In this document: in pieces, positions 2,042 to 62,468 of the stretch
Layout of the letters: the number at the start of each line of letters is the position of its first letter
Numbering within the stretch: the first letter of the stretch is position 1
Notes under the pieces: model-generated
Told to the model about the DNA's origin: nothing
The model's database searches: none
Seen by the model: only the letters and a program-made list of their open reading frames with translations
IMG/VR virus record: IMGVR_UViG_3300008227_000004
Strand: one strand, 5' to 3'
DNA: 64,000 bases
DNA from: a virus
Program-made: the position numbers and the translations under genes

Positions 2042-2413
2042 ATGACAACCACCCCAAGTTTGGAAAACATCAACCAGATAATACATCTAGCCCACTCAAT
2101 TCATCGGTGGAAACAGGTCTCTAGGGGATATAACGATTTGATGGTTGATGATTGTCGGTTATGTAAGATGTATGACACAGATGACAACGATTGTAACGGG
2201 TGTCCTGTGTTTGAGGATAGTGGTCATCGTAATTGTGAAGGGACTCCATATGACGCGTGGTGGGATTATGCTTATCACAATAAGATGGGATATGGATGTA
2301 TGGCTCGTGAAACGAACAAAGAAATTGATGATAGGTATGTATATTTGGCTAAAGCTGAGTTGCATTATTTGGAACGTATACAATATAAAATAATAGCGGG
2401 AGGGTACACATGA
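2042..2413 (+). CDS. Cys-rich hypothetical protein (paralog of 19335-19760)
   Basis: 123 aa; shares a C..C...C(E/D)GTPY(D/T)AW motif with the ORF at 19335. Confidence 0.5.
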   Translation: MTTTPSLENINQIIHLAHSIHRWKQVSRGYNDLMVDDCRLCKMYDTDDNDCNGCPVFEDSGHRNCEGTPYDAWWDYAYHNKMGYGCMARETNKEIDDRYVYLAKAELHYLERIQYKIIAGGYT

Positions 2414-3428: not shown

Positions 3429-3652
3429 GACGATGCAATTTTAAAGAGCCTGATTGGTTTGAAGGGTATGAGTTTTTGGAAGTGACACCTGGTGGTGGTG
3501 ATGCATATTATGACAGCGACGGTGATCGAGCTATAATCGTTTATCACAATAAAATCAAGGTGTACAGTAATCGTAAGAAACACATGTATAGTAAACATGC
3601 ATGTTCCTTTTCTGATTGTAATGTAATTGAATGTAAGCAGAAAGTATCATGA
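3425..3652 (+). CDS. hypothetical protein
   Basis: 75 aa; ATGA overlap with upstream gene. Confidence 0.4.
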   Translation: MRRCNFKEPDWFEGYEFLEVTPGGGDAYYDSDGDRAIIVYHNKIKVYSNRKKHMYSKHACSFSDCNVIECKQKVS

Positions 3653-31163: not shown

Positions 31164-33140
31164 ATGAGTTTTATCACAGATGCAGCAAAATCCACAACCG
31201 AATTAATTGATACACTGATCGAAGAGCATTCAACCCAGGAATTAATTGATATTCTAATGACTGCCGACGATGAATATGCCAACAGTACTGATGGTGATTT
31301 AACACTAACAGACACACAATACGACATCCTACGCCGCAAATTGCAACTCTCCGTTCCTCACCACGTATATTTTACTGGGGTTGGAAGTGCTGTCCGTGGT
31401 GGTAAAGTAAAACTGCCACATAAAATGGGCAGTCTAAACCAAATATTCGAGAATGATGTAGAAGCTTGGGTTTCTGATAACCGATTAACAACATCACGAT
31501 TTGTTATAACCGACAAACTTGACGGTGTTAGTGCGATGGTAATCTATCCTGGTAACGATGAACCGTTTCAAATTGGTTATAGTCGTGGGGATGGTACGGA
31601 AGGTGCGGATATTTCTCGTCACCTATCAAAAATTGTACCAAAATCAATACCACACCCAACATCGTTGGCTATTCGTGGTGAAATCATTCTAACAAAAGAA
31701 GGGTTTGATGTCCTGAAAACTAAAGTGTTTACTCGTCAGGGCTTAGAATACAAAAACGCTCGCAATATGGTTGCAGGGTTGATGAATTCAAAAACAAATC
31801 CGGATATCGTGTATTCATTTCTCAAATTCGTATCATACCAAATCGTTGGTGTTACTCTTAGTAAAACAGCAATGCTGTATACTCTAATGGAGTACGGCTT
31901 TAAAGTTCCCGTTCTGGCAACGCGGATGGGTAGGGATCTGAATGATCCAGACTTAATTGCATACCTAACAGAACGAAAAGAGAAAGCTGAATATGAAATC
32001 GATGGTATTGTTGTTGATGTTGATGACGAATTAGAGCGTGTGAGACTCAGTCCAAATGCTGCTGCCCTCAATCCATCATATTCATTTAAGTACAAAACGA
32101 CAGATGCTGATAATTACGCAGAAACGGAAGTTACTTGGATTGAACTGAGATTATCCAAACACGGATTCATAAAACCACGATTTCACGTTAAACCTGTTAA
32201 TCTGGTCGGTGTTACTATCGTTCATGCTACAGCCCTAAACGCCAAATACTTACTAGAAAACAAAATCAGACCAGGCACAAAAGTGGCAATCTCTCGTATG
32301 GGGGATGTGGTTCCTAATGTAACAAAGATTTTGGGACAGACCGACGAAATGTCTGATGACGAATACAACTTGTGGTTCAATGATCAAATGGATCAGTTCG
32401 GCGTTTGGACCTGGTCTACCACAGACAAAGGGGACGGTGTGGATGCAAAGGTAGTCGACATTAGCAACCATTCCATCATATTAATCAAGCAGTTATATGA
32501 TTTCTTTGATAAACTAGATATTGCGTTTCTTGGTATGGGCAATGTAACGAAATTAGTTGATAGCAAAATTGACACACCCGAATCGATACTAACAATGACC
32601 GAAGCTGAATTGGTTGGTGTGCTGGGTGAGAATGGGAAAAAAGTATTCAAAAGCATTCACGAAAAGTTAAATGGTATTACACTACACAAGCTAGTAGGTG
32701 CACACTCAAATCAACGTGGAATTGGTATACGAAAGATGCGTAAGGTTGAGCTAGCAGTTGGTGGTAACTTTACCACCAACCAATCAATATCATCGATCAA
32801 ATCGTTGGATGGCTTTGATACCATCACCGCTACGGGCGCCATGGCCGCTATAAACGCATTCAATGACTTTTTCCCCATCGTTAAGCATCTGGTAACACTT
32901 GAAAGTGCAACACCAACCGATGCTAAATTAGCTGGGATGAAAATATGCTTCACCGGCTTTCGTGATAAACCACTTCAAGCTGCTGTGGAGTCGAAAGGTG
33001 GTACAGTACAGAGTGGTGTTAGCAAAACCACCGATCTCGTTGTGACCGTTGATGTGAACGGTGCGAGTGGTAAACTAAAGAAAGCCAGAGATCTAAGCAA
33101 AAAGATCATTACAGTTGAAGACTTCATGCAGTTGTTATAA
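31164..33140 (+). CDS. ligA: NAD+-dependent DNA ligase (LigA-like) with C-terminal BRCT domain
   Basis: 658 aa; adenylation motif TDKLDGVS; OB-fold and HhH-like regions; C-terminal BRCT-like KICFTGFRDKPLQAAVESKGGTVQSGVSKTTDLVV. Confidence 0.8.
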   Translation: MSFITDAAKSTTELIDTLIEEHSTQELIDILMTADDEYANSTDGDLTLTDTQYDILRRKLQLSVPHHVYFTGVGSAVRGGKVKLPHKMGSLNQIFENDVEAWVSDNRLTTSRFVITDKLDGVSAMVIYPGNDEPFQIGYSRGDGTEGADISRHLSKIVPKSIPHPTSLAIRGEIILTKEGFDVLKTKVFTRQGLEYKNARNMVAGLMNSKTNPDIVYSFLKFVSYQIVGVTLSKTAMLYTLMEYGFKVPVLATRMGRDLNDPDLIAYLTERKEKAEYEIDGIVVDVDDELERVRLSPNAAALNPSYSFKYKTTDADNYAETEVTWIELRLSKHGFIKPRFHVKPVNLVGVTIVHATALNAKYLLENKIRPGTKVAISRMGDVVPNVTKILGQTDEMSDDEYNLWFNDQMDQFGVWTWSTTDKGDGVDAKVVDISNHSIILIKQLYDFFDKLDIAFLGMGNVTKLVDSKIDTPESILTMTEAELVGVLGENGKKVFKSIHEKLNGITLHKLVGAHSNQRGIGIRKMRKVELAVGGNFTTNQSISSIKSLDGFDTITATGAMAAINAFNDFFPIVKHLVTLESATPTDAKLAGMKICFTGFRDKPLQAAVESKGGTVQSGVSKTTDLVVTVDVNGASGKLKKARDLSKKIITVEDFMQLL

Positions 33141-34495: not shown

Positions 34496-35042
34496 GGTAG
34501 ATCAACACGATATGCTATTGGTGCTTGGAGATTGGTCCAGTGATGGTCACAGTCAAACAACCAACTTTGGTATCAGAACCAACAAAACGGTGGATGATAT
34601 ACAAAAAGCATACAAAGCATCATGCAAGATGACTGGAATATCCTTCAATCACAACGAGGATTATACCGAAGTCGCACGGGACTGGCGAGTGGATAAATTG
34701 TATCGAATTGCAACAGAGTATGACAAACCATTCACATATCAAGAAACGTATGATATATTAGTTGATTTGGATTGTCCTCTTGTTGATAATTTCATCAAAG
34801 GACATTATATGTATGATGGTAATGATGTGTACTACTTCAACGAAGACGATAGATTTAGACACTTTATCGACCTGTGGTTGTGGTTTGTGCAGTTGTCATT
34901 ACCCGATCTTGAGTATATAATGGCTCAAGACATTGCAATTGCTGATCCAGCATTTGCAGCATTTGATCCGCCACCACCTATTAATGGGTTTTGGAATGAG
35001 GGTCTTAACGTACAATTTGGCTATGGCCTGTACTGTCCATAA
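34488..35042 (+). CDS. hypothetical protein
   Basis: 184 aa; overlapping start. Confidence 0.5.
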   Translation: MSKVDQHDMLLVLGDWSSDGHSQTTNFGIRTNKTVDDIQKAYKASCKMTGISFNHNEDYTEVARDWRVDKLYRIATEYDKPFTYQETYDILVDLDCPLVDNFIKGHYMYDGNDVYYFNEDDRFRHFIDLWLWFVQLSLPDLEYIMAQDIAIADPAFAAFDPPPPINGFWNEGLNVQFGYGLYCP

Positions 35043-35048
35043 ATAACA

Positions 35049-35069
35049 GCGATGAGATAGACTCATCGC
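35049..35069 (+). promoter_or_regulatory. conserved hairpin element upstream of natV (GCGATGAG-ATAGA-CTCATCGC)
   Basis: perfect 8-bp stem with ATAGA loop, 27 nt before the natV ATG; same architecture upstream of nadV. Confidence 0.45.
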
Positions 35070-35095
35070 ATAACAATAACCTAGGAGGATTTCCT

Positions 35096-36133
35096 ATGAA
35101 TACAGAAGAACAATACGACTACCTCGTGTACATTGGTAGATTTCAGCCATCTCACTTGGCACACATCGAAACAATCAAAATTGCGTTACAACAATCCAAA
35201 AATGTTATAATACTAATCGGATCGTCATTTCAACCAAAGACAATCAAAAATCCTTGGTCATGGCAAGAACGTGCGGAAATGATCAGCAACTCGCTATCTC
35301 ATAGCGAAAAACTCAGAGTACAATTTGCACCCATTGCGGATGATGCTTACAACAATCAACGTTGGGTTACACAAGTCCAAAAAATGGTCGAAACGTTAAG
35401 CACCGAAGGAAGCCACATCGGAATGATCGGTCACACTAAAGATGACACATCATTCTACTTAAAAATGTTTCCTCAATGGAAGCATGTTGAGGTTCCTAAT
35501 ATCAACGACTTGCACGCAACTGACATCCGTGTCGCTTTGTTTGAACACTCAACAGACTTTTTCAGCAAACAAGTTATGCCAACATTACCAAAAGCTATTC
35601 ACGAATACTTGTTGGCATGGAAGCTAAAACCTATCTTCGAACAACTGAAATATGAATATGAATTTATACAGAAATATAAATCCGCTTGGGCTGTAGCTCC
35701 ATATGAACCAATCTTCGTGACAGTTGATGCTGTAGTGGTGCAATCAGGACACGTGTTATTGGTAAAACGGCGATCGGCTCCAGGAAAAGGATTGTGGGCT
35801 ATTGTCGGGGGGTTTGTAAATCCAAACGAGACTCTCATTGATGCTATGTTACGGGAATTAAGAGAAGAGACTAAAATTAAGGTGCCCGATCCTATATTAC
35901 GGGGGAATATCAAAATACAAGAGGTGTACGATCACCCTGCCCGAAGTTTACGGGGTAGAACTATAACACATGCTTACGGTATCGAATTACCACCAGGTGG
36001 ACTTCCAAAAGTGAAAGGAAGCGATGATGCTGAAAAAGCACAATGGATTCCGATTACCACAATTAAAGAAATGCGCGATCAATTGTTTGAAGATCACTAC
36101 GATATTATTTTTGATATGTTGGGACGGTTGTAA
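35096..36133 (+). CDS. natV: bifunctional NMN adenylyltransferase / Nudix ADP-ribose pyrophosphatase (NatV/NadM-Nudix-like)
   Basis: 345 aa; N-terminal nucleotidyltransferase motif YIGRFQPSHLAH (HxGH-type); C-terminal Nudix box GGFVNPNETLIDAMLRELREETKI; strong RBS TAGGAGGA. Confidence 0.85.
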   Translation: MNTEEQYDYLVYIGRFQPSHLAHIETIKIALQQSKNVIILIGSSFQPKTIKNPWSWQERAEMISNSLSHSEKLRVQFAPIADDAYNNQRWVTQVQKMVETLSTEGSHIGMIGHTKDDTSFYLKMFPQWKHVEVPNINDLHATDIRVALFEHSTDFFSKQVMPTLPKAIHEYLLAWKLKPIFEQLKYEYEFIQKYKSAWAVAPYEPIFVTVDAVVVQSGHVLLVKRRSAPGKGLWAIVGGFVNPNETLIDAMLRELREETKIKVPDPILRGNIKIQEVYDHPARSLRGRTITHAYGIELPPGGLPKVKGSDDAEKAQWIPITTIKEMRDQLFEDHYDIIFDMLGRL

Positions 36134-36177
36134 TAAATAACCTGGAAGAGAGCATTATCTCTTCCAGGAGACCACAC

Positions 36178-36792
36178 ATGGAAATGATAAACTTTAAACA
36201 ACGGTGGGATATATTATATCAAACGACAGACGATGTAGCTGAAACGTTAGTGGAAGCAAAACAACGCAATGCCACATATTATCGCCACATCTGTAAAAAA
36301 CACGGAAAAGTATTATTTTACACAAAAGACAATAGCTGTCCAATTTGTTGTAAGGTTGCTCGTGATATTCGTGTTACCCACAATAGGGTGTTTAATAGAT
36401 CCCGTGAAATATACAATGAAATTAAACAACGGGCAAAAAAAAAGAATGTTTTGTTTTTGTTGACAAAAGAAGAATTTAGAACAATATATGGAACAGTGCA
36501 TCTATGTCCGGTACTTCATATACCGATAGTATATGATAAAATCGAAGGAGTAATGACGGATAATTCTCCGTCCACTGATAGACTCATACCCGAAAACGGA
36601 TATACAATGGATAATATTAACATTATATCGAATCGAGCCAATCGGATAAAAAACAACGGAACACCAACCGAACACATACAAGTTGCTATTTGGCAATTGA
36701 AACAAGAGGGTAATACTGCGGAAGATATATTGGATATAGTAACAACGGCACTAAACTCAACCAACATCGTCAATGCTTTCATTGGTGACTAA
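36178..36792 (+). CDS. HNH homing endonuclease inserted between natV and nadV
   Basis: 204 aa; HNH_3-like DRLIPENGYTMDNINIISNRANRIKNN motif; zinc-binding CPICC. Confidence 0.55.
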   Translation: MEMINFKQRWDILYQTTDDVAETLVEAKQRNATYYRHICKKHGKVLFYTKDNSCPICCKVARDIRVTHNRVFNRSREIYNEIKQRAKKKNVLFLLTKEEFRTIYGTVHLCPVLHIPIVYDKIEGVMTDNSPSTDRLIPENGYTMDNINIISNRANRIKNNGTPTEHIQVAIWQLKQEGNTAEDILDIVTTALNSTNIVNAFIGD

Positions 36793-36850
36793 CAAAACCA
36801 GTTGTCGAGCATTGCAGTTACAGGTGATGCTTTTTATTTTTAACGCACAA

Positions 36851-36873
36851 GGGATATCGATAGACGATATCCC
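36851..36873 (+). promoter_or_regulatory. conserved hairpin element upstream of nadV (GGGATATCG-ATAGA-CGATATCCC)
   Basis: perfect 9-bp stem with ATAGA loop, 24 nt before the nadV ATG; followed by GAGGATTTC RBS block shared with natV. Confidence 0.45.
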
Positions 36874-36897
36874 ACGCAAACATAGAGGATTTCTATA

Positions 36898-38322
36898 ATG
36901 AACTTTTTACAACACGCAGTTTTTAACATTTTACTAAACACAGATTCATATAAAGCGAGCCATTGGTTGCAGTATCCCCCTGGTATTGAGTATGTTCACT
37001 GCTATATTGAATCGCGTGGTGGGGTATACGATGAAACGGTATTCTTCGGATTGCAGATGTTCTTACAAGAATACATGAGCAAACCAATCACACAAGAAAT
37101 GATTGACGAAGCGGAATTGTTCTGGCCTGCTCATGGTGAACCATTCAACAAAGAAGGATGGCAACACATATTAAAAGAGCACAACGGTTACTTACCGTTA
37201 AAAATCAAGTCGGTGGCGGAAGGTACTGTTGTACCGGTAAGCAATGCACTGGTTACTATCGTTAATACTGATCCGAAATGCTTTTGGTTACCATCACACG
37301 TCGAACCATCGATATTACGTGGTGTGTGGTATCCAACTACAGTAGCAACCAACAGCTGGACCACCAGAAAAGTAATTACGAGTTACATGAAATCAACATC
37401 CGACTTAACCGGACAAGAACAGGAAGATGCTATCGATTTTATGTTGCATGACTTCGGATCGCGTGGTGTTAGTTCACTGGAAAGTGCCATGATTGGTGGA
37501 GCTGCACACTTGGTAAATTTCAAAGGATCTGATAATGTACCAGGTATAGTTCACGCAAATAGACAATATTCGCATGAGATGTCAGGAAAATCTGTACCAG
37601 CATCCGAACACAGTTCAATTACTACATGGGGCAAGGGACGGGAGACAGAAGCATATCGCAATATGTTGAAGCAATATGGAGACAAGTTCTTCGCATTCTC
37701 TGTGGTATCCGACTCGTACGATATTTTCAATGCAGTTGAACATATCTGGGGTGATGAGCTGAAAGAATTGGTTATTGAGTGTGATGGGTGGCTAGTTATC
37801 AGACCTGATAGTGGTGATCCAGCAACCGTGGTAACAAAAATTATGTTGTTGCTTGAATCCGCATTCGGTTACATCCGTAATACCAAAGGCTATAAAGTAC
37901 TAAAACATGTTCGAGTGTTGCAAGGTGATGGCATTACAACCAAAAGCATTGATGCTATATTATCGAAGATGGTTGGATACAAGTTCAGTGCGGAAAATGT
38001 ATTATTTGGACAGGGTGGTGCGTTATTACAACAACTGGATCGAGATACTGGCAGATGGGCATATAAAGCAAGTGCTGCATTTATCAATGGTGAGTGGGTC
38101 GATGTATTCAAAGATCCGATTACCGATACCGGTAAACGCTCGAAACGTGGACAATTAATGTTATACCGTTCGGATGCAGGTAAATTTACAACAGATTGTA
38201 TTGGGGCAAAAACAATGGATGAACAAATGCTCACTCCTGTGTACCTAAATGGTAAAATATTGCGAACTACAACATTGGAAGAAGTTCGTACTACTAGATT
38301 CAACACAACTAACACATTATGA
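36898..38322 (+). CDS. nadV: nicotinamide phosphoribosyltransferase (Nampt/NadV)
   Basis: 474 aa; NAMPT hallmarks DSYKASHW, LHDFGSRG, GSDNVPG, RPDSGDP. Confidence 0.9.
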   Translation: MNFLQHAVFNILLNTDSYKASHWLQYPPGIEYVHCYIESRGGVYDETVFFGLQMFLQEYMSKPITQEMIDEAELFWPAHGEPFNKEGWQHILKEHNGYLPLKIKSVAEGTVVPVSNALVTIVNTDPKCFWLPSHVEPSILRGVWYPTTVATNSWTTRKVITSYMKSTSDLTGQEQEDAIDFMLHDFGSRGVSSLESAMIGGAAHLVNFKGSDNVPGIVHANRQYSHEMSGKSVPASEHSSITTWGKGRETEAYRNMLKQYGDKFFAFSVVSDSYDIFNAVEHIWGDELKELVIECDGWLVIRPDSGDPATVVTKIMLLLESAFGYIRNTKGYKVLKHVRVLQGDGITTKSIDAILSKMVGYKFSAENVLFGQGGALLQQLDRDTGRWAYKASAAFINGEWVDVFKDPITDTGKRSKRGQLMLYRSDAGKFTTDCIGAKTMDEQMLTPVYLNGKILRTTTLEEVRTTRFNTTNTL

Positions 38323-42136: not shown

Positions 42137-43231
42137 ATGTTAATATATGTAGTTGGTGGTGCCGTTAGAGACACCTTACTAAACCAACCAGTAAACGATA
42201 TCGATTATGTTGTTGTCGGTTCAACGCCCGAAGAGATGGAGTCGTTAGGCTACAAGCAAGTTGGAGCGGACTTTCCCGTATTCTTATGCCCCAATGGCGA
42301 TGAATACGCATTAGCTAGAACCGAGCGGAAAAACGGTAACGGTTACAATGGGTTCGAAACGAACTTCAATCCCACCGTTACCTTAGCCGAAGATCTACTA
42401 CGCCGTGACCTAACTATTAACTCAATGGCAGTATTGCTATCTGATTGGGATCAGTTCAAAACAACACATGATGTTACCAAAGTGATCGATCCATGTGGTG
42501 GGTTGCAAGATCTTGTTAACAAAACACTAAAACACACATCCGAGCATTTCGCGGATGATCCAGTACGATTGTTGCGAATAGCTAGATTCAACGCTAAGTA
42601 TGGGTTCAATGTAACCAGACAAACAATGCAATTGATGACAACAATGACCACAAACGGTGAAGTGGATCATTTGGTACCCGAACGTGTGTGGGCTGAAACA
42701 GCTAAAGCAATCGAGCTACCAAATGCAATGGAGTTTTTTTGGATACTCCATCGATGTGGAGCATTGAATGTTATCATACCAGGGCTAACAAAAACTCTGG
42801 TAGCAAATGGAAAATCGTTTAGATCGGCAACACTCAGAAATTGCAGCACCGCCATCCGAATGATGATATTATTTGGACCGATGCTGGATGCTTCTGACGC
42901 ATTAACAAAGCTACGAGCACCATCATCAGTAATCAGAGATGTGCTAGCATTTCAACATGCTATGCAATTGGTGAGCAACGATGTAACACCAGAGGCTGTA
43001 TTGGGATTTTTAAAAACAATAAAAACTTCTGAATTGCTCTACGATATTTCAACCGCCATTAGTGTAGTGAATCCATCAGGGGCGTTGATATACGATCGCG
43101 TTATACAAGGACACAACCTCATCAGATTTATATCGTTTCGTTCGCTACCGGCCAATCATACGTTGGAAGGTAAGCAAATTGGTGTAGCAATCGATAATCT
43201 TCGCATCGCAGTTATTGCTGACCTATTATGA
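42137..43231 (+). CDS. cca: tRNA nucleotidyltransferase (CCA-adding enzyme)
   Basis: 364 aa; VGGAVRDTLLNQPVNDIDYVV and RRDLTINSMA are class II CCA/poly(A) polymerase head motifs. Confidence 0.8.
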   Translation: MLIYVVGGAVRDTLLNQPVNDIDYVVVGSTPEEMESLGYKQVGADFPVFLCPNGDEYALARTERKNGNGYNGFETNFNPTVTLAEDLLRRDLTINSMAVLLSDWDQFKTTHDVTKVIDPCGGLQDLVNKTLKHTSEHFADDPVRLLRIARFNAKYGFNVTRQTMQLMTTMTTNGEVDHLVPERVWAETAKAIELPNAMEFFWILHRCGALNVIIPGLTKTLVANGKSFRSATLRNCSTAIRMMILFGPMLDASDALTKLRAPSSVIRDVLAFQHAMQLVSNDVTPEAVLGFLKTIKTSELLYDISTAISVVNPSGALIYDRVIQGHNLIRFISFRSLPANHTLEGKQIGVAIDNLRIAVIADLL

Positions 43232-47109: not shown

Positions 47110-47186
47110 GGGGTTGTAGCTCAGCTGGAACGAGCATCTGCCTTGCAAGTAGAGGGTCGGGGGTTCGAATCCCCCCAGCTCCACCA
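47110..47186 (+). tRNA. tRNA-Ala (anticodon UGC)
   Basis: cloverleaf: acceptor GGGGTTG/CAGCTCC, D-arm GCTCAGCTGGAACGAGC, anticodon loop CTTGCAA, T-arm GGGGGTTCGAATCCCCC, CCA encoded. Confidence 0.8.
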
Positions 47187-47622
47187 ATAAGAACAACATG
47201 CACGAGGATGGGTTGATGATGTGTAACACGCGGTCAACTTAAAGGAGCCTAGATCGTAGCCTAAGCTACTACGAACATTCCCACCGCAACCTTGTGCGGA
47301 AGATAGACGCAACCTTTTATAGTAAGGATTATAAGGCAGGTTAGTACGCCTGTGGCATCGCAAGTACTCGAGTGAAGTCTGAAAGGTGTTTTACCGTGCC
47401 AAACACTCGTTAATCAAAGTCGGAAACGGTTTTCACTATATACGGATATATGAAAAAGAAAATACGGATAATTTCAAAAATAAACAAGCAACACAGACGA
47501 GTAATCGAACATGGTGTTGCGGAATGTGGTTCCATAATCGTTATGAAAAAGGAACCTTTAAGCTCACTACATCCTAACCTACATTTTGATAATGACGGTT
47601 GGTATATGTGGTGTGATAATAA

Positions 47623-47695
47623 GCCTTAGTAGCTCCAATGGTAGAGCTCTAATTTCGTAATTTAGATGTTGCTGGTTCGACTCCAGTCTAAGGCT
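47623..47695 (+). tRNA. tRNA (anticodon CGU, Thr by rule)
   Basis: acceptor GCCTTAG/CTAAGGC perfect; D-arm GCTCCAATGGTAGAGC; T-arm GCTGGTTCGACTCCAGT; anticodon loop TTCGTAA. Confidence 0.65.
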
Positions 47696-47699
47696 CACA

Positions 47700-48158
47700 A
47701 TGGATTTGTATTTGTGGGTGATGGTTCGACTCGTAAATATGGGCATGAAAAAATGTACTAAGTGTGATAGTGATAAACCGTTAACTGAATTCTACAAAGC
47801 TGTTAGAATGAAGGATGGGTACCAATCTAGTTGTAAATCGTGTGCTGATGTAAGCACCAAAGGATCCAGGGCTAAAAACCCAAAGAAATATCACAACATG
47901 CGATATTCGTATGCAAAACAACGCCAGGCATACATAACGTCGTTGAAGATGCAATCAGGGTGTGTGTGTTGTGGTGAAGATGAATTGTGTTGCTTAGATT
48001 TCCACCACTTAGATCCGACACAAAAAAAATTCAACATTAGCAGCGCTGCCACGAAATGTGGATGGGGGGTGTTACTGGAAGAAATACAAAAGTGTGTTAT
48101 CGTGTGTGCTAATTGCCACAGAAAGATACACAACAATTTAATAACAATAAGCTCTTGA
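47700..48158 (+). CDS. HNH endonuclease embedded in the tRNA cluster
   Basis: 152 aa; zinc-finger CTKCDS...CKSC and HNH core CVCCGEDELCCLDFHHLDP...CANCHRKIH; its stop overlaps the next tRNA 5-prime end. Confidence 0.65.
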   Translation: MDLYLWVMVRLVNMGMKKCTKCDSDKPLTEFYKAVRMKDGYQSSCKSCADVSTKGSRAKNPKKYHNMRYSYAKQRQAYITSLKMQSGCVCCGEDELCCLDFHHLDPTQKKFNISSAATKCGWGVLLEEIQKCVIVCANCHRKIHNNLITISS

Positions 48159-48227
48159 AGCATTTATCTGGATGATGTCAACTCTTGTAAAGTTGGGAAT
48201 ACGGTTCGATTCCGTACTGGAGCTCCA
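48151..48227 (+). tRNA. tRNA (anticodon UGU, Thr by rule) with atypical D-arm
   Basis: acceptor GCTCTTG/CTGGAGC (one mismatch); anticodon arm CAACT-CTTGTAA-AGTTG perfect; T-arm TACGGTTCGATTCCGTA; CCA encoded. Confidence 0.5.
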
Positions 48228-48242
48228 CAATAAGGAAGTAAC

Positions 48243-48476
48243 ATGACTTTTAGTATTAAAGATATTGTAAAAAATAATGTAGCTAACATGCTATACTATA
48301 GACACCAAGTAGTGTATTATAGTGTATTGGTTCCAGGTGAAAACATTGAGTATTCATTTCCGGTTCCATTGGATGATGTACAGGATGCTACCCTTCACCA
48401 CGAAGAGAAGGCAATACTGTTGATGAGATACATCCGCAAAGCTGTTAAAGATGGCACGTTCGTAAAGGTAATATAA
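48243..48476 (+). CDS. hypothetical protein
   Basis: 77 aa; RBS AAGGAAG upstream. Confidence 0.5.
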   Translation: MTFSIKDIVKNNVANMLYYRHQVVYYSVLVPGENIEYSFPVPLDDVQDATLHHEEKAILLMRYIRKAVKDGTFVKVI

Positions 48477-48670
48477 TGAAAGACAAACGGTCGATTGAAC
48501 TAACTGGAACAGATATTGTGTTGGAGCTATCAAAAGCAACTGCGGTAAAAACACAAAAGAACATGATACATTTGGATGAACTTGATGATGGAACCTGGAG
48601 ATTGATTTATAATGGTAACTTAATCCCTGATTTTTCCCAAATCTCAGCACTAACAATGGTGCGACAATAA
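48476..48670 (+). CDS. hypothetical protein
   Basis: 64 aa; overlapping start. Confidence 0.4.
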   Translation: MKDKRSIELTGTDIVLELSKATAVKTQKNMIHLDELDDGTWRLIYNGNLIPDFSQISALTMVRQ

Positions 48671-48903
48671 TGTATATGACATATGGTGTGATAACTAGAG
48701 GTGGGTATAGTGGTGGTGAGTGGAGCGAGACTTCACGCACCATCAACATACAAGCTAAAACTAGAAAGAAATTGCAAGCAAAGAAAGATGAAGCTACAAA
48801 AACGCACACGAGTGCTGGCAGTCCAATCGACTTTGGGTATGTATCAGGGACATCAGAAATCGAGTGGTCATCACAACTGTGGAAGTTAGTTTCTTCCACC
48901 TAA
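48670..48903 (+). CDS. hypothetical protein
   Basis: 77 aa; overlapping start. Confidence 0.4.
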   Translation: MYMTYGVITRGGYSGGEWSETSRTINIQAKTRKKLQAKKDEATKTHTSAGSPIDFGYVSGTSEIEWSSQLWKLVSST

Positions 48904-48914
48904 TTTTAATAATA

Positions 48915-48986
48915 GCGGATTAACTCAATTGGTAGAGTGCTCACCTGATAAGTGGGAAGTTTTGGGTTCGAATCCCAAATCTGCTA
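48915..48986 (+). tRNA. tRNA-Ile (anticodon GAU)
   Basis: acceptor GCGGATT/AATCTGC; D-arm CTCAATTGGTAGAG; anticodon arm CTCAC-CTGATAA-GTGGG; T-arm TTGGGTTCGAATCCCAA. Confidence 0.75.
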
Positions 48987-49004
48987 CAAACAAAAAGGAT
49001 AATA

Positions 49005-49451
49005 ATGATAGGTACATTAACAATTTCGCAAGCTGTAATAGGATTCCTAGGATTCCTGGGTATCAACAATTTCAAAGAACTTACCAACGCCATATATGGA
49101 TTGGTTGGGATGAAAAGGGATGGTGTTGAGATAATCCAGACGGATAACGATGTTGAGATTCGTAAGAATGGCAAGCTGATTATCAAGTTTGATGTTGACT
49201 CCATAGAAGAAATGTTTGATAATACGTTACCAGTTCCGGACTTCTCATACAACTCGTATGAGGCGTTTATTGTTAACCAATGGGATGTGTTGGACCCGAA
49301 GCCAACCATTATAAAATTGTGGCGTGAAGATGCTGCCATTTTGATTAAAATAAAATATCCAGGTACTGGACAAGAAGCAACAACGAAAATAGAACACGGT
49401 GACTTAGCTGAACAACGATTAACAATCTTAGCTGAACTACATCGAGAATAG
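49005..49451 (+). CDS. hypothetical protein
   Basis: 148 aa; follows tRNA-Ile. Confidence 0.5.
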   Translation: MIGTLTISQAVIGFLGFLGINNFKELTNAIYGLVGMKRDGVEIIQTDNDVEIRKNGKLIIKFDVDSIEEMFDNTLPVPDFSYNSYEAFIVNQWDVLDPKPTIIKLWREDAAILIKIKYPGTGQEATTKIEHGDLAEQRLTILAELHRE

Positions 49452-49456
49452 ATTAT

Positions 49457-49531
49457 TCCCACTGGGCCGCAAGGTGTGGCACCTCCCTGTTAAGGAGATT
49501 TAGCGAGGTTCGATTCCTCGAGTGGGAGCCA
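49457..49531 (+). tRNA. tRNA-Asn (anticodon GUU)
   Basis: acceptor TCCCACT/AGTGGGA perfect; anticodon loop CTGTTAA; T-arm CGAGGTTCGATTCCTCG; CCA encoded. Confidence 0.65.
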
Positions 49532-49546
49532 AATAAGGAAAAAGCA

Positions 49547-49759
49547 ATGGATACATTAGGGGAATTAGCGAAGATCATGGGCATCGAGAATCAAACCAGA
49601 TACTGTATAACATACGGTGAAGGTGATAACAAATGTAGCTGTGAATTTTCTGCAAGAATGTCAAATTCGGAAGAAGAATTAGCTGACCTGCTTGAGGAAT
49701 TTGTCTCTCATTTACGAGCTGACAAAACCGAAGTGACAACGAAGGATGGGATATTCTGA
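49547..49759 (+). CDS. hypothetical acidic protein
   Basis: 70 aa; RBS AAGGAAAAAG. Confidence 0.45.
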   Translation: MDTLGELAKIMGIENQTRYCITYGEGDNKCSCEFSARMSNSEEELADLLEEFVSHLRADKTEVTTKDGIF

Positions 49760-49869
49760 ATGTGTGCAATGCTGGACTTGGATGAGTGGCTTGACGAGAT
49801 GAAGCCAACCGATAGAGAACGCAATGTAAAAAGATTTAAAGATTTATATGTAGCACAATTTCAACAACT

Positions 49870-49937
49870 GGGGGTGTATACGGTTAGACTGGATGGTTTG
49901 CAACCAACCGGGCGGAGTTCAACTCTCCGTACCTCCA
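49870..49937 (+). ncRNA. tRNA-like element with truncated D-arm (possible tRNA or pseudo-tRNA)
   Basis: acceptor GGGGGTG/TACCTCC with G-U pairs; canonical T-arm CGGAGTTCAACTCTCCG; anticodon-like arm GATGG-TTTGCAA-CCAAC; only 12 nt for the D-region; lies inside ORF 49760-49960. Confidence 0.3.
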
Positions 49938-49956
49938 CAAAAAACAACGAGGATGC

Positions 49957-50313
49957 ATGATGTCTGATAGAAAACCTGGAATAGGCAACTTTTTTAAGTG
50001 GCCGGTATTTGAGCTGGATCCGAATGATAGCAACACCACGGTGTTCACAGTATCTAAAGATCGTGACAAAGAACCAGGAACAATCTCCGGATTTGATATG
50101 TCACCATCAGATACGCTACTGATTAATGATTGGTTAGCAGATCACAACAAAACATGCAAATTTTACGATGACGGGAGCACAGCTTCTAATCCTTGTGGTG
50201 CAATAGGTGGTAGACTAACGTACAGCTTCACTCCAACGGGGTTGGGTACTGTAGTTGTGGTTATGTGTGCTTGTGGTGCTAAACTTGATTTAACAGACGT
50301 GGATAATTGGTAA
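49957..50313 (+). CDS. hypothetical protein
   Basis: 118 aa; ATGATG overlap upstream. Confidence 0.5.
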   Translation: MMSDRKPGIGNFFKWPVFELDPNDSNTTVFTVSKDRDKEPGTISGFDMSPSDTLLINDWLADHNKTCKFYDDGSTASNPCGAIGGRLTYSFTPTGLGTVVVVMCACGAKLDLTDVDNW

Positions 50314-50588
50314 TGTTTATAGTAGAGAGTGAGATTGATAGATCCGAACAACACAATCCTGTTTTACGGGTTGTTGTCTTTCAAACCGCCGACGATCAGC
50401 AACAATTCGATACGAGGACATATAGCATGTCTCTTCGATCGGTAGATGCAGATATGCACCAATGGTGCGAACAAGTGATGGTTGCAAATGTTACAGATAT
50501 TGTCACCCAAGTAGAACAGGGTACTAAAGCTAACATCAAAAAAATGATTGCCAAGACATTTAACTTTCTTGGCCTAGACTTTTCATAA
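50307..50588 (+). CDS. hypothetical protein
   Basis: 93 aa. Confidence 0.45.
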   Translation: MVMFIVESEIDRSEQHNPVLRVVVFQTADDQQQFDTRTYSMSLRSVDADMHQWCEQVMVANVTDIVTQVEQGTKANIKKMIAKTFNFLGLDFS

Positions 50589-50771
50589 ATAACTAAATGA
50601 AACATATACAATTTATAGTGTGGTTTTCTGATTCATCATATGACCCCCAAAAGGTTGAAGTTTGGGCGTTAACCAAAGAGCAAGCAGTCATATTGGCACA
50701 AGCTGAGCGAATCAAAGCTGGTGACGATTATACATTGCATAGTATTAGTTTTTGAGAGTTTTAAGGGCAAC

Positions 50772-50963
50772 ATGGCCAGAGATTTTGGGGTTACAAACAA
50801 GAAGTACAAAAAAGCGTTATCAGATATGCGTGATATCGAATTGACAACAGAACATCTGGAATCAGTAAAATTGTTGTTAGCGGCCGAGGATGCAAGAGCT
50901 GCATTAGCGATAAAAAATCAACAAGTCAGTGAAGGAGATCTTCACCGACGGTTTAATTTATAG
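50772..50963 (+). CDS. hypothetical protein (internal ATG of track ORF 50721)
   Basis: 63 aa. Confidence 0.4.
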   Translation: MARDFGVTNKKYKKALSDMRDIELTTEHLESVKLLLAAEDARAALAIKNQQVSEGDLHRRFNL

Positions 50964-51420
50964 GTACTTTTGGTGGTAATAAATGGAAGCGATATATCAT
51001 TGCAGTGAATGCTCATTTCGATGGAGACAAAAACCTGATATGGTTGTGTGTCCAAAATGTAAACACAAATACGTAAAGTGGATAAATTTTAGCGACTGTG
51101 AAAAAAACAAATTTAGATAGATCAGCAGAACGTGTCAGCAACTATGCGCAGCTTGACACCTACCGGACATTGGGGGTTCGACTCCTCCCTGTTGAGCAAA
51201 ATAACAATTTTGTGTTATTCCCATCCCGTACCCAACACCTGACACTATCGGGAACCATACATGCTACGGCATATGGGGGAACAACATAAGAATGGTGACG
51301 AATCCACATCTGTGCACGGAGGTGGAGGAAAGATAAGAATGGTAGTCACACCTCCCCTCCCGACACAAGCCACAAAGTGGCACTATCGGGAACCATCCGT
51401 GTTACGACACGAGGGAACAA

Positions 51421-51496
51421 TGGATCGCTAGCTCAATCGGCAGAGCATTCGACTTTTAATCGAAGGGTACTGGGTTCAAATCCCAGGCGGTCCACC
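51421..51496 (+). tRNA. tRNA-Lys (anticodon UUU)
   Basis: acceptor GGATCGC/GCGGTCC; D-arm GCTCAATCGGCAGAGC; anticodon arm TTCGA-CTTTTAA-TCGAA perfect; T-arm CTGGGTTCAAATCCCAG; CCA encoded. Confidence 0.8.
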
Positions 51497-61310: not shown

Positions 61311-61355
61311 ATTGTTGTATTGTTATTGTTTTTAATCATATGTGGATATTTACTA

Positions 61356-62468
61356 ATGAACCAATACCAACAAACTTTATACGATCAATTGATAGCCCTA
61401 ACATCAACCACCGATGCCTTCTTTTTCGCTGATCACACACACGAACGCATTAAATACCGAATTTTCAACTATCGATTAGCATCATATTCGTTGTTTTGTT
61501 TACCGTCAGCGCAAGAATGTCGAGGTATTATGTTTGAATTGGATGAATGTGGGGATGCCATTAGATTAGCTGCACTTCCTATGCACAAATTCTACAATTT
61601 GCACGAAAATCCATTTACTATGGATGTTGACCTAACAACTGTTGATCGAATTATGGTTAAGTCGGATGGTTCGTTAATCTCAACGTACATGCATGGCAGT
61701 GAAATGCGGCTAAAATCCAAAGGATCGTTAGCTTCTGTCCAAGCGATTGATGCTATGGAGTGGTTGAACAAATACGAGAACATCGACTTCAAAATGGACT
61801 TGTTGCACTTCACCCTAAACGGTCACACTGTAAACTTGGAATGGGTGGGACCCGACAATCGAATCGTGTTAGGATACGAGCAGTCAGCATTGATTGTATT
61901 GAATATCCGCGATACTGCCACAGGATTGTATCGCCCTGCCTCTATGTCAACGTTCATCGACTACTCATACCCCAACGTAAAAACAGATGATGTGGTATCG
62001 TTCGTTGAATCTGTACCACGCATGACAGATAGCATTGAAGGCTTCGTTTGTATTACTACAGATGGTTTGTGGTTCAAATTGAAAACAGAAAAATACTTGT
62101 CGTTGCACCGCACGAAAGATTCGATTAACTGCCCACGTAGATTATTCGATGCTTGTGTTGATGATGCTGTTGACGATATGCGCTCAATGTTCTATGATGA
62201 CCCTCAAGCGATCGTGCTTATCGATGAAATGCAAGAATTTGTTGATACACGATACAACCACATGGTTTCCACCGTTGAAACTTTTTTTGCAACAAATGAA
62301 CGATACGATCGCAAAGATTTCGCAATTACAGCTGGTCAAGAGTTAACCAAACAAGAGTTCGGCTTGGTGATGAACCTGTACATGCAACGTCCCGTAGATT
62401 ACAAGGCTTCCATGAAGAAAAATTGGAAGAACTACGGTATTTCAAACGAAAAAACGGAAACAAAATGA
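61356..62468 (+). CDS. rnlA: RNA ligase 1 (T4 RnlA-like)
   Basis: 370 aa; motif I KSDGSLISTYMHG (T4: KEDGSLVSTYLDG); conserved ECRGIMFE, FNLHENPFTM, RIVLGYEQ blocks matching T4 Rnl1. Confidence 0.85.
   Translation: MNQYQQTLYDQLIALTSTTDAFFFADHTHERIKYRIFNYRLASYSLFCLPSAQECRGIMFELDECGDAIRLAALPMHKFYNLHENPFTMDVDLTTVDRIMVKSDGSLISTYMHGSEMRLKSKGSLASVQAIDAMEWLNKYENIDFKMDLLHFTLNGHTVNLEWVGPDNRIVLGYEQSALIVLNIRDTATGLYRPASMSTFIDYSYPNVKTDDVVSFVESVPRMTDSIEGFVCITTDGLWFKLKTEKYLSLHRTKDSINCPRRLFDACVDDAVDDMRSMFYDDPQAIVLIDEMQEFVDTRYNHMVSTVETFFATNERYDRKDFAITAGQELTKQEFGLVMNLYMQRPVDYKASMKKNWKNYGISNEKTETK

Follow-up and report, generated by a model that had tools for sequence, protein, structure and literature searches.

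A covarying two-hairpin mRNA leader precedes NAD-synthesis genes in phages and some bacteria and probably switches them together

Introduction

How are natV and nadV, two NAD-synthesis genes carried by the same phage DNA, controlled, and are they controlled together? We know of nothing on the control of phage nadV and nadM/natV, and NAD+ belongs, to our knowledge, to a small group of universal cofactors for which hardly any RNA sensor has been described. Two NAD+ riboswitch classes have been described, both rare and confined to Acidobacteria and Streptococcus (PMC7749635), and the NadV and NadM/NatV enzymes of phages have been proposed to restore NAD+ that host NADase effectors have depleted (PMC9503650). 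The locus considered here lies in a window of 64 kb (the whole stretch of DNA analysed) from a contig of about 325 kb. An earlier note on this DNA had reported two matched cassettes, each formed by a hairpin with an ATAGA loop and a ribosome-binding site (RBS), before natV and nadV, and had taken them for a control element linking both NAD genes, rather than a terminator, possibly acting through RegB or RNase processing.

The two leaders of the window

Both cassettes have the sequences and positions originally described (Table 1). The nadV hairpin ends 24 nt before its ATG, as had been given; the natV hairpin does precede its ATG, at 26 nt and not at the 27 nt claimed. What had been called a near-identical RBS block (as DNA, TAGGA-GGATT-TCCTA for natV and ATAGA-GGATT-TCTAT for nadV) is itself a second covarying hairpin (P2) around the Shine-Dalgarno (SD) sequence and the AUG, which had been missed. 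Nor had the earlier note remarked on the probable position of the mRNA 5' end, or on a regulon that extends, in both phages and bacteria, to nadA and small ORFs.

Table 1. Features of the natV and nadV leaders and their surroundings (positions in the 64-kb window)
Feature	Position	Strand	Sequence or structure	Remarks
Sigma-70-like promoter	34893..34921	+	TTGTCA-17-TATAAT, 11/12	Inside the upstream ORF; alternative natV promoter; consensus match only
CATAAATA box	35038..35045	+	CATAAATA	3 nt upstream of natV P1; candidate promoter -10 or late-type element, tentative
natV leader, P1 hairpin	35049..35069	+	GCGATGAG-ATAGA-CTCATCGC; 8-bp stem	Loop AUAGA 35057-35061; G-C closing pair
natV leader, linker	35070..35081	+	AUAACAAUAACC	No G, single-stranded; possible 30S standby site
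natV leader, P2 hairpin	35082..35098	+	UAGGA/UCCUA stem; loop GGAUU 35087-35091	SD GGAGG 35084-35088; ATG 35096-35098 overlaps the final stem base
natV	35096..36133	+		Bifunctional NMN adenylyltransferase + Nudix (NadM-Nudix); Pfam CTP_transf_like, NUDIX; first gene proposed as regulated
nadV leader, P1 hairpin	36851..36873	+	GGGATATCG-ATAGA-CGATATCCC; 9-bp stem	Loop AUAGA 36860-36864; G-C closing pair
nadV leader, linker	36874..36881	+	ACGCAAAC	
nadV leader, P2 hairpin	36882..36900	+	AUAGA/UCUAU stem, 36882-36886 with 36892-36896; loop GGAUU 36887-36891	ATG 36898-36900
nadV	36898..38322	+		Nicotinamide phosphoribosyltransferase; Pfam NAMPT_N, NAPRTase; homologues found; second gene proposed as regulated

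A scan of the window for perfect hairpins (stem of at least 7 bp, loop of 3-8 nt) returned only these two with an ATAGA loop, and none of the eight further GATAGAC heptamers, checked for hairpin context, lies in a hairpin. The 9-mer GAGGATTTC, at the RBS, occurs exactly twice (35085-35093 and 36885-36893), where about 0.5 exact matches would be expected by chance according to our own estimate. Compared with shuffled sequences, both leaders fold stably, at -17.0 kcal/mol for natV (z = -4.9) and -16.5 kcal/mol for nadV (z = -4.7). The minimum-energy fold includes P2 for natV and not for nadV, whose P2 is weak and is supported by covariation across homologous leaders.

Architecture and conservation of the motif

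When homologous leaders are aligned, P1 appears as a stem of 4-11 bp with an almost invariant apical loop (L1), G-AUAGA-C, and P2 as a hairpin of 5-8 bp with the Shine-Dalgarno GGA in its loop (L2) and the AUG at its 3' foot, from -4 to +2 relative to it. The covariation that the earlier note had proposed to look for is present, with 92-95% of stem cells paired against 31-51% in slid controls: 93.2% against 39-47% in alignment A1 (covariation score 0.865), 95.0% against 36-51% in A2 (81 sequences, with 11 of 11 pairs changing on both sides), and 91.9% against 31-49% in A4 (score 0.903), which comprises 89 distinct sequences from loci fetched by protein homology. The predicted fold of P1 and P2 is supported by this covariation in both stems, and the two cassettes of the window are copies of one structured RNA motif, far from chance.

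L1 reads GATAGAC in 92 of 104 distinct instances by automatic parsing, about four more being parse errors when inspected by eye, and its positions G4 and A5 show no change in any of the 104; in L2, conservation is limited to GGA followed by two free positions. The linker is poor in G (9% over 183 instances) and not conserved in sequence, the distance from L1 to L2 is 20-29 nt in 93% of instances, and P2 is marginally stable, with a mean energy of -3.2 kcal/mol across instances. Stem and linker turn over, whereas very strong purifying selection acts on the P1 loop, G-A-N-A-G-A-C. Position 3 of L1 deviates in two genomes, in each case in both copies: GUGGA twice in Sulfurirhabdus, and AGUGA and AACGA in contig L222.

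No conserved internal loop, junction or pseudoknot was found in the motif. Among the contacts considered was a pseudoknot pairing AUAGA of the P1 loop with UCUAU beside the nadV AUG. It fits only the nadV copy of the window, in which the 5' arm of P2 equals the loop, and was rejected because other copies combine an unchanged loop with UCCAA, UCUUU, UCCUA or further sequences in place of UCUAU. A link by covariation of loop position 3 with the closing pair of P2 is contradicted by the L040 nadM leader and by L108; kissing of the two loops would give at most 2-3 weak pairs, and L2 varies; mimicry of a GNRA loop, K-turn, anticodon loop or D-loop does not fit by inspection.

Distribution and associated genes

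Covariance models, run with filters off, single out the two sites of the window. The first model, R1, gave 63.1 and 54.4 bits (next best in the window, 11.5), but was too narrow, missing the variants of Xanthomonas phages and Sulfurirhabdus, and was therefore rebuilt as R2 and R3. R2 gave 49.6 and 44.2 bits, with nothing further in the window at E<=5, and R3, trained on other contigs only, without sequence from the window, gave 45.7 bits (E 6e-9) and 40.5 bits (E 1e-7), the next best reaching 10.8 bits.

Protein homology alone was used to fetch 80 viral natV loci. The motif is present in 76 of them, ending at the natV start in 61 and lying nearby in 15, and is missing from 4; in this survey of viral NatV loci, all 127 matches are on the gene strand. 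The 186 ORFs downstream of the motif encode NatV in 79 cases, NadV in 69 and NadA in 8 (together about 84%), NadA being confirmed by Pfam (E 1.6e-79). Several copies per contig occur, as in L014 (nadA, natV and nadV), and L031 has a tandem copy; in the same genomes the motif also stands on unrelated genes (nadA and several small ORF families). The small ORFs have no relatives in Pfam or PDB, and in PHROGs they fall only into families of unknown function or under a weak 'kinase' label. No other gene of the 64-kb window or of the flanks of the fetched loci carries the motif; it is confined to the sense strand and, as to genes, to natV, nadV, nadA and a few small ORFs.

The carriers are hundreds of phage contigs, including the cultured Xanthomonas phages RTH11 and LucasX, and bacterial chromosomes (Methylococcales, Sulfurirhabdus), that is, phages of probably diverse hosts together with Beta- and Gammaproteobacteria. 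In two relatives of the window locus (L001 and L007, 77-78% NadV identity), GATAGAC is kept in both leaders with compensatory changes in the stems, and the leaders follow the orthology of their genes and have no look of recent copying. The proposed link between both NAD genes is thus borne out by conservation of the motif upstream of natV and nadV homologues; it is neither scattered through the genome nor absent from these genes in relatives, the two outcomes that the earlier note had named as contrary to its reading.

A nadM/natV gene adjoins the motif in L040, L050, L180, L262 and the phage loci, while none is visible beside the motif-bearing nadV of two Methylococcales loci. Phages of the KVP40 type have natV and nadV and lack the motif in the 9.3-kb stretch examined around nadV; ACP17, XacN1 and RsoM2USA lack the P1 loop, yet an SD-in-loop hairpin precedes their nadV. 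In the neighbourhoods examined there is no conserved regulator gene near the motif. Megablast of the locus against 50,697 phage records, IMG/VR searches with single NadV and NatV proteins, and an exact look-up of the window's own NadV gave no match.

Promoters and the mRNA 5' end

Among 101 instances, promoter matches of at least 10/12 have their -10 element ending 11-30 nt before the closing G of L1 in 56 cases, with only 8 such matches elsewhere in the 250-nt span. Since strong promoters end just upstream of it, P1 is probably the mRNA 5' end; transcription would start a few nucleotides before it, making P1 a 5'-terminal structure. The promoter position in the window itself is uncertain. Of 104 instances, 31 have ATAAATA upstream of L1, mostly ending 7-16 nt ahead of the G that closes the loop, and CATAAATA is kept in L001 and L007 despite diverged flanks; however, the window holds 21 ATAAATA where 22 are expected, so that the assignment of this box as a promoter is tentative, and the idea that T4-type late promoters are used generally across the window was rejected.

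The overlap of P1 with the predicted transcription start region, a frequent site of operators, could point to an element acting as DNA: an operator for a dimeric repressor such as NrtR, a cruciform, an N4-type hairpin promoter or a terminator of the upstream gene. A T-rich run after natV P1 on the minus strand, called terminator-like, also speaks for an element of this kind. Such readings are hardly credible, and are already largely refuted by the divergence of the arms and the strand bias. The P1 arms differ wholly between the two copies of one genome and covary to keep pairing, natV and nadV sharing no half-site of the kind that NrtR-type operators conserve; conservation is confined to the asymmetric centre GATAGAC, whereas a DNA palindrome bound by a protein would show the reverse; and every one of the 127 matches is co-oriented with its gene, at a fixed distance from SD and AUG. 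Two copies in 64 kb are too few for a general type of promoter. Intrinsic terminators combine a G+C-rich stem with a U-tract, and here the stems are followed by AUAACAAU and ACGCAAAC, without a sense-strand U-tract, and no plus-strand terminator was called at either P1. A control element rather than a terminator, as first proposed, agrees with these results and with the covarying stems and the constant loop and spacing.

The idea that RegB, RNase E or RNase III cuts the leader, inactivating or maturing both NAD mRNAs, draws on the GGAGG within natV P2 and on the T4-like RNA enzymes encoded in the window (an RnlA-like RNA ligase and a CCA-adding enzyme). The target of RegB in T4 is GGAG, expected at the SD of every target, and the window's nadV leader lacks it (AGAGGA), as do many further copies (AAGGAUU, AAGGAAC). 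Taking into account this gap and the presence of the motif in bacterial chromosomes, the RegB/RNase mechanism of the earlier note is unsupported. Moreover, RNase III needs stems longer than the 4-11 bp found, and P1 appears to lie at a primary 5' end; processing as the shared mechanism is very improbable.

How the leader may act

The leader has the features generally expected of a structured cis-regulatory mRNA leader, namely a sense-strand position in the 5' UTR, covariation and a set of related genes. Since hundreds of phage contigs, and some bacteria too, carry it before genes of NAD synthesis, it probably switches these genes on and off together. As to the mechanism, we tentatively favour shared control of translation initiation in which a protein reads the P1 loop. 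P2 alone would lower 30S access, and P1, 20-29 nt upstream of the SD and beside the G-poor standby linker, would lie at the edge of the 30S footprint, so that a trans-acting macromolecule, most likely an RNA-binding protein, bound there could gate ribosome loading on every mRNA bearing the leader. A first candidate is the NadM/NatV enzyme itself, which accompanies the motif wherever the neighbourhood is readable; we know of no RNA-binding activity in it. We would guess that the genes are repressed as long as NAD is plentiful and released once it falls, for instance under attack by an NAD-degrading defence.

The paired deviations of L1 within two genomes hint at a co-evolving macromolecular partner, an argument that concerns those two genomes only. 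Four observations run against reading by a protein: the KVP40-type result, the two Methylococcales loci without a visible nadM, the tandem copy of L031, and the spread of the motif over phages of probably diverse hosts and over Beta- and Gammaproteobacteria.

The leader might also sense nothing and simply travel with NAD genes as a constitutive cassette, with the 5'-terminal P1 blocking 5'-end-dependent decay and linker plus P2 enhancing translation. Here the location of P1 directly downstream of strong promoters would fit, as would the SD-in-loop hairpin found before nadV without the P1 loop in ACP17, XacN1 and RsoM2USA, and linkers that are often like UUAACUUU, the epsilon enhancer of T7 gene 10. 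We consider this improbable: a stabilising hairpin needs no fixed loop, and this motif keeps its loop almost unchanged through complete replacement of stems and linkers; besides, the motif reaches unrelated genes (nadA, small ORF families) and is absent from all other genes of the window and of the locus flanks, and its leaders track orthology.

A further possibility, which we hold to be somewhat unlikely, is that the leader directly binds NAD+, NMN, nicotinamide or ADP-ribose and, with no protein involved, stabilises or destabilises P2 and thereby sets access to SD and AUG, as a third class of NAD riboswitch. The tight link to one metabolic pathway, the separate copy for each cistron with one tandem arrangement (L031), and an output hairpin that encloses SD and AUG and is only marginally stable are in line with it, as is the likeness to the architecture of guanidine-II. 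A metabolite explains more easily than a host protein why the motif is portable between phages and chromosomes in two classes of Proteobacteria, where no conserved regulator gene lies beside it. NAD+ is a millimolar metabolite, so that a small and weak aptamer could be enough. The known NAD+ classes are rare and of narrow taxonomic range (Acidobacteria, about 101 representatives; Streptococcus, about 130; PMC7749635), and further classes are therefore to be expected. On the other side, the conserved core is very small, a pentaloop with 4-5 fixed bases; the second loop is just GGA and two variable positions, which makes a fixed two-loop pocket unlikely; no internal loop, junction or pseudoknot is conserved, and the L1:P2 pairing of the window's nadV copy is not kept elsewhere; and the concerted L1 deviations suggest a macromolecular partner. 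It is doubtful, in particular, that the leader is a structurally minimal third NAD class of Proteobacteria and their large phages, through which the phage would sense a collapse of NAD+ brought about by NAD-degrading defence systems, or a rise in nicotinamide or ADP-ribose, and turn on translation of NadV, NatV and accessory proteins; if so, it would be an RNA sensor within a counter-defence pathway.

Significance

A compact leader marks NAD salvage and synthesis genes in many uncultured large phages, two cultured Xanthomonas phages and some Beta- and Gammaproteobacteria, and makes the control of these genes directly testable with a 55-nt RNA and simple reporters. In addition, about ten families of small phage proteins that lack annotation share the leader and are therefore candidates for new NAD-related or anti-defence functions.

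Comparison with known systems

The two-hairpin leader is apparently undescribed so far. Over the whole window, Rfam 15 at gathering score returned four tRNA matches only, and a search of 34900-37000 at E<=10 gave only five weak matches, to unrelated families and attributable to chance, none overlapping either leader; the literature searches yielded nothing that ties nadV, nadM or NARP2 to an RNA motif or a riboswitch.

The described NAD+ riboswitches, NAD+-I (nadA motif) and NAD+-II (pnuC motif), are likewise cis-acting leaders before genes of NAD biosynthesis or transport. Their build is unrelated (tandem bulged stem-loops, or P1-P1a and a pseudoknot), and they occur in Acidobacteria and Streptococcus on nadA and pnuC. 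Over the 2.1 kb that surround the two leaders, the NAD+-I model gave no match even at E<=10, nor did NAD+-II match, whose family model is presumably in Rfam. NAD+-II also involves the ribosome-binding site (PMC7749635); its P1-P1a-pseudoknot architecture (PMC7749635) is absent here, and the genes downstream are natV, nadV and nadA, not pnuC.

Guanidine-II (mini-ykkC) has two identical ACGR tetraloops and serves guanidine export or carboxylase genes. The motif resembles it in its two short covarying hairpins with stems of variable length, its variable, unconserved linker, the RBS at the second hairpin, conservation confined to the loops and very small size, but has the pentaloops A-N-A-G-A and GGA-N-N, the second not fixed, NAD genes and no Rfam match; the likeness is one of shared architecture only, not of membership.

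With targets of CsrA/RsmA the leader shares a GGA in the loop of a small hairpin overlapping the SD and a second hairpin 20-30 nt upstream. In those targets GGA stands in both loops, whereas the upstream loop here has AGA and not GGA in about 97% of copies (AUAGA in about 92%; GGA only in the GUGGA of the Sulfurirhabdus type), conservation extends far beyond GGA, and the regulon is one pathway, not global. ANTAR targets have two hairpins whose hexaloops carry A at position 1 and G at position 4; L1 has both bases but is a pentaloop, L2 (GGA-N-N) does not fit, and there is no Rfam match.

Lambda boxB, the N target, is also a short stem with a purine-rich pentaloop (GAAGA in nutL, AUAGA here) just after a promoter in a phage transcript. 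However, it acts in transcription antitermination and not in the translation of single genes, whereas the present motif has no boxA-like conserved sequence that we could see, stands at a fixed place next to an SD and AUG, keeps to NAD genes and is found in bacterial chromosomes as well.

In outline, a parallel to the reading favoured here, a protein bound at the P1 loop, is the IRE/IRP system of animals, in which a hairpin with a fixed loop and free stem recurs in several 5' leaders of one pathway and the reader, itself an enzyme of the pathway, blocks ribosome loading. This is an analogy only, as loop, organisms and translation machinery differ and the reader in our case is only a candidate. 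With a protein as effector, the leader would be the counterpart of IRE/IRP logic in bacteria and phages; with a metabolite, it would be a new riboswitch class.

Architecture of the Leader

The leader that precedes natV and nadV is real, specific and conserved. The hairpin sequences, the ATAGA loops and the repeated ribosome-binding (RBS) blocks described in an earlier note are all borne out by the sequence of the window, the distance from stem to start codon being 26 nt for natV and 24 nt for nadV. In a scan of all perfect hairpins of the 64 kb (stem 7 bp or longer, loop of 3-8 nt) these are the only two looped by ATAGA, and the 9-mer GAGGATTTC has two exact occurrences in the window, one at each leader site. 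The repeated block that was said to hold the RBS and start codon exists, but that description overlooked that it is itself a small inverted repeat, TAGGA-GGATT-TCCTA before natV and ATAGA-GGATT-TCTAT before nadV. Thus, the leader consists in both copies of an upstream hairpin (P1), a linker and a second hairpin (P2), whose 5' arm and loop hold the Shine-Dalgarno (SD) purines and whose foot holds the AUG. The fold energy is -17.0 kcal/mol for the natV leader and -16.5 kcal/mol for the nadV leader, with z about -4.8 relative to shuffles; the optimal fold contains P2 for natV, and for nadV P2 is weak.

Features of the window, with positions on its given strand
Feature	Position	Strand	Remarks
Promoter match	34893-34921		11/12
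CATAAATA	35038-35045		Conserved in relatives
natV P1, GCGATGAG-ATAGA-CTCATCGC	35049-35069	+	natV ATG at 35096
natV, NadM-type NMN adenylyltransferase fused to Nudix	35096-36133		Pfam
ATAAATA box	36133-36139
Perfect 11-bp hairpin	36141-36168		-21 kcal/mol, z = -6
HNH/endonuclease VII-like nuclease ORF, between natV and nadV	36178-36792		204 aa; phrog_3322, E 6e-24
Terminator-like hairpin and T-run (TTTTTATTTTT)	36807-36842		Between endonuclease ORF and nadV P1
nadV P1, GGGATATCG-ATAGA-CGATATCCC	36851-36873	+	nadV ATG at 36898
nadV, nicotinamide phosphoribosyltransferase	36898-38322		Pfam
DNA ligase; CCA-adding enzyme; tRNA genes; RNA ligase	31164-33140; 42137-43231; 47110-51494; 61320-62468

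Across about 180 instances collected, the P1 loop with its closing pair reads GATAGAC in 92 of 104 distinct cases by automatic parse, about four of the others being parse errors by eye. The variants are GACAGAC, GAAAGAC, GAGAGAC, GAGTGAC, GAACGAC, AATAGAT, GGTAGAC and GGTGGAC; G4 and A5 of the loop are invariant and position 2 is free. The loop of P2 is GGA followed by two free bases (GGATT in 42%, GGAGT in 25%, GGAAC in 14%), a conservation that is little beyond the SD requirement. P2 itself has 5-8 bp (mean -3.2 kcal/mol), is frequently extended as CAU...AUG, and places the AUG at -4 to +2 relative to its 3' end. The two loops lie 20-29 nt apart in 93% of instances, separated by a linker with 9% G and no sequence conservation. 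In one viral contig, L222, both P1 loops are deviant, AGUGA for natV and AACGA for nadV, in otherwise canonical leaders (2441-2497 and 3563-3617).

Conservation and Covariation

No near relative of the window was found among 50,697 phage records, and its NadV shares no more than 55% identity with proteins of cultured phages, the best being from Xanthomonas jumbo phages. A search of 5.8 billion proteins retrieved identical NadV on contigs of up to 324,905 bp, as well as relatives at 72-78% identity, whose contigs are syntenic with the window. The absence of the motif before natV and nadV homologues in relatives had been named as grounds for rejecting it; these relatives keep both leaders, with GATAGAC and the GAGGATTTC block unchanged. 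Their stems differ by compensatory changes, from GCGATGAG/CTCATCGC to GCAACGAG/CTTGTTGC or GCAATGAG/CTTGTTGC at natV, and from GGGATATCG/CGATATCCC to AAATTGTTG/CGACAATTT or GATTGTTG/CGACAATC at nadV. The P2 arms, of natV type or nadV type, track the gene, indicating that the two leaders are maintained separately, with no recent copying.

Covariation in the stems, which the earlier note had proposed to check, is strong against slid controls in three alignments of leader instances.

Pairing and covariation in the alignments; A1 and A2 are plain MAFFT alignments, and A4 is model-fitted, its counts being biased slightly towards structure
Alignment	Sequences	Cells paired	Slid controls	Covariation score
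A1	20	93.2%	39-47%	0.865 (controls 0.10-0.18)
A2	81	95.0%	36-51%	0.819; both sides change at all 11 pairs
A4	111 hits, 89 distinct	91.9%	31-49%	0.903

Thirteen NatV proteins were aligned and used to collect, by protein homology alone, the 80 best NatV loci from IMG/VR, which are the nearest relatives of the query proteins, since these came from motif-bearing contigs. The covariance model R2 gives 127 matches in these 80 loci, all 127 on the gene strand. The match ends at the natV start in 61 loci; in 15 it lies nearby, often before a small ORF preceding natV, or before nadV, and in four R2 finds no match. A further model, R3, trained solely on matches from these loci, recognises exactly two sites in the window, one scoring 45.7 bits (E 6e-9) and the other 40.5 bits (E 1e-7), against 10.8 bits for the next best, and the models R1 and R2 find the same two and no others, so that the motif is not common and scattered there. 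The divergence of the arms, the strand bias and the missing U-tract make it scarcely credible that the element acts at the DNA level or as a terminator, the latter having already been discounted for want of a U-tract.

Distribution in Viruses and Bacteria

Searching IMG/VR with a pattern in which the loop and SD block were fixed and the stems unconstrained gave 18 stretches. A real stem of 4-11 bp surrounds the loop in 15 of them, each of different sequence; their P2 arms covary (TAGGA/TCCTA, AAAGA/TCTTT, TTGGA/TCCAA, TAAGA/TCTTA, ATAGA/TCTAT), and the ATG follows P2 by 0-2 nt. The remaining three are stemless, and there the gene is likewise absent. The same kind of search in JGI metagenomes gave more than 119 stretches among the matches listed. 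Two cultured Xanthomonas phages, RTH11 and LucasX, have the leader ahead of both natV and nadV; among other cultured phages, it was not found in a KVP40-like Vibrio phage, an Aeromonas phage, ACP17 or XacN1, and RsoM2USA is borderline. In ACP17, XacN1 and RsoM2USA, which lack the P1 loop, a small hairpin whose loop contains GGAG ends at the nadV AUG (L179:2940-2985, L178:2950-3005 and L177:2918-2985); therefore, placing the SD in a hairpin loop may be a broader habit of these phages, independent of P1.

The GTDB search gave 23 stretches, near a rough chance estimate, of which seven are real by covariance model. These seven, from Methylococcales MAGs, Crenothrix and a Pseudomonadales MAG, lie upstream of nadV in ordinary chromosomal surroundings (TamB, glyoxalase, methyltransferases), in two cases between nadM and nadV. 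One Methylococcales nadV has two tandem leaders about 125 nt apart (L031:2245-2297 and 2065-2121, minus strand), the first followed by a 10-codon mini-ORF and no gene. In Sulfurirhabdus autotrophica and a related genome, a variant leader with a GUGGA loop and an additional hairpin within the linker stands before nadA and nadV of a nadA-nadM-nadV operon. The presence of the motif in bacteria, together with the absence of GGAG from the nadV leader of the window and from many other copies, renders very improbable the suggestion of the earlier note that RegB or RNase processing controls the two NAD genes.

Genes under the Leader

In a gene-agnostic set derived from the pattern (91 distinct instances), the downstream ORFs encode NadV in 30 cases, NatV in 28, NadA in seven, and several small unknown families. 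The pooled sets comprise 186 downstream ORFs, with 79 NatV, 69 NadV and eight NadA; the others are small families of 62-99, 96-98, 108, 113-118, 117-124 and 113-152 aa, one ORF that appears radical-SAM-like by eye, and a 346-aa protein whose DnaJ-like match is weak, as is its PHROGs 'kinase' match. Up to four copies occur per contig, as before nadA, natV and nadV in L014, and several copies on single contigs are the signature of a regulon. A constitutive cassette that stabilises the message and enhances its translation would leave both this gene specificity and the invariant loop unexplained, and is improbable.

The NadA concerned is a quinolinate synthase (Pfam, E 1.6e-79), found under the leader in viral contigs and Sulfurirhabdus (L014:9338-9392, L017:4924-4978, L020:480-538, L082:1517-1574, L180:842-1807); neither nadB nor nadC was seen adjoining it. 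The leader is also shared by small phage ORFs without annotation, which form about ten families (62-152 aa, plus the 346-aa protein; L111:1579-1876, L126:1052-1463, L022:9708-9763, L023:1157-1213, L082:5204-5259, L250:2112-2166, L186:2143-2201). The small ORFs have no relatives in Pfam or PDB, and their families are candidates for NAD-related or anti-defence functions. Directly downstream of the motif-bearing operon of S. autotrophica lies a RES-Xre toxin-antitoxin pair (L180:4615-5721); RES toxins degrade NAD+.

Promoters and Position in the Transcript

Many copies have a full sigma-70-type promoter (TTGACA-17-TATACT or TATAAT) and/or an ATAAATA box upstream of P1. In 101 instances, 56 promoter matches of at least 10/12 have a -10 element ending 11-30 nt before the loop-closing G, and only eight such matches lie elsewhere in the 250-nt span. 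Taking into account that the 5' arm has 6-10 nt, transcription would start at or just before P1; judging from these consensus matches, the mRNA most likely has P1 as its 5'-terminal structure. Promoter position is less clear in the window itself than across instances, and ATAAATA is not enriched over the window as a whole. Should the terminator-like hairpin before nadV work, the gene would depend on read-through or on a separate promoter within the 8 nt preceding P1, where none was recognised.

Proposed Mechanism

The structure of the leader, its restriction to the sense strand, its fixed relation to SD and AUG and its association with NAD genes are established, as is the near-invariance of the P1 loop in contrast to the complete turnover of stems and linker. 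P2 would lower the access of ribosomes, and an effector may recognise the P1 loop; lying at the 5' edge of the 30S footprint and beside a G-poor standby stretch, P1 could, when occupied, gate initiation.

We tentatively favour a protein as effector, as a possibility short of an even chance. Recognition by a protein classically involves a fixed apical loop carried by a stem of free sequence, as in P1, and the variable second loop runs contrary to a two-loop pocket. Loop position 3 is other than A only in L222 and Sulfurirhabdus (GUGGA twice), among the genomes seen, and in each of these the two copies, otherwise unrelated, both deviate, suggesting a co-evolving partner. NadM/NatV, found with the motif in every neighbourhood that was readable, is the obvious candidate, as a guess. 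Direct binding of a ligand, as in a riboswitch, would fit a motif that is portable between phages and two classes of Proteobacteria, lacks an adjacent regulator gene and is present in one copy per cistron, occasionally in tandem, and very small aptamers for abundant ligands have precedent; we consider this reading somewhat less likely than a protein effector.

Gene Neighbourhood

The natV-nadV gap, occupied in the window by the nuclease ORF, holds a 191-aa ORF and another of 97-131 aa in the syntenic relatives L001 and L007, which marks it as a site of variable insertion. The perfect 11-bp hairpin lies immediately past the natV stop codon; its 3' arm contains most of the SD (CCAGGAG) of the nuclease ORF, and the ATAAATA box ends 2 nt before the stem. 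In T4, read-through transcripts mask the RBS of a homing endonuclease, and transcripts starting inside the hairpin free it; the arrangement at 36133-36180 looks like this case. Two genes upstream of natV lies an AAA ATPase gene that contains an intein (Hom_end_hint, Hom_end; 687 aa) in one group of relatives (L007:1261-3324) and is intein-free, with 319 aa, in another (L001:2017-2976). The DNA ligase encoded 2 kb upstream of natV is NAD-dependent, an NAD consumer without the leader. The window further encodes a CCA-adding tRNA nucleotidyltransferase, four tRNA genes and a T4 RnlA-like RNA ligase.

Comparison with Known Systems

The leader has no match among the curated families of Rfam 15, and the two NAD+ riboswitch classes differ from it in architecture, genes and taxa (PMC7749635). 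In the literature searched, which included few subscription journals, we found no leader RNA described for nadV, nadM or natV; the word 'riboswitch' is absent from a survey of viral NAD systems, and no discussion of the regulation of these genes was found in the parts of it consulted (PMC9503650). Nearest in architecture is guanidine-II and nearest in logic is IRE/IRP, the leader differing from both in the loops that define them. Thus, within the bounds of the open literature and of Rfam's curated families, we class it as a new family of structured cis-regulatory mRNA leader, and one that extends well beyond the window.
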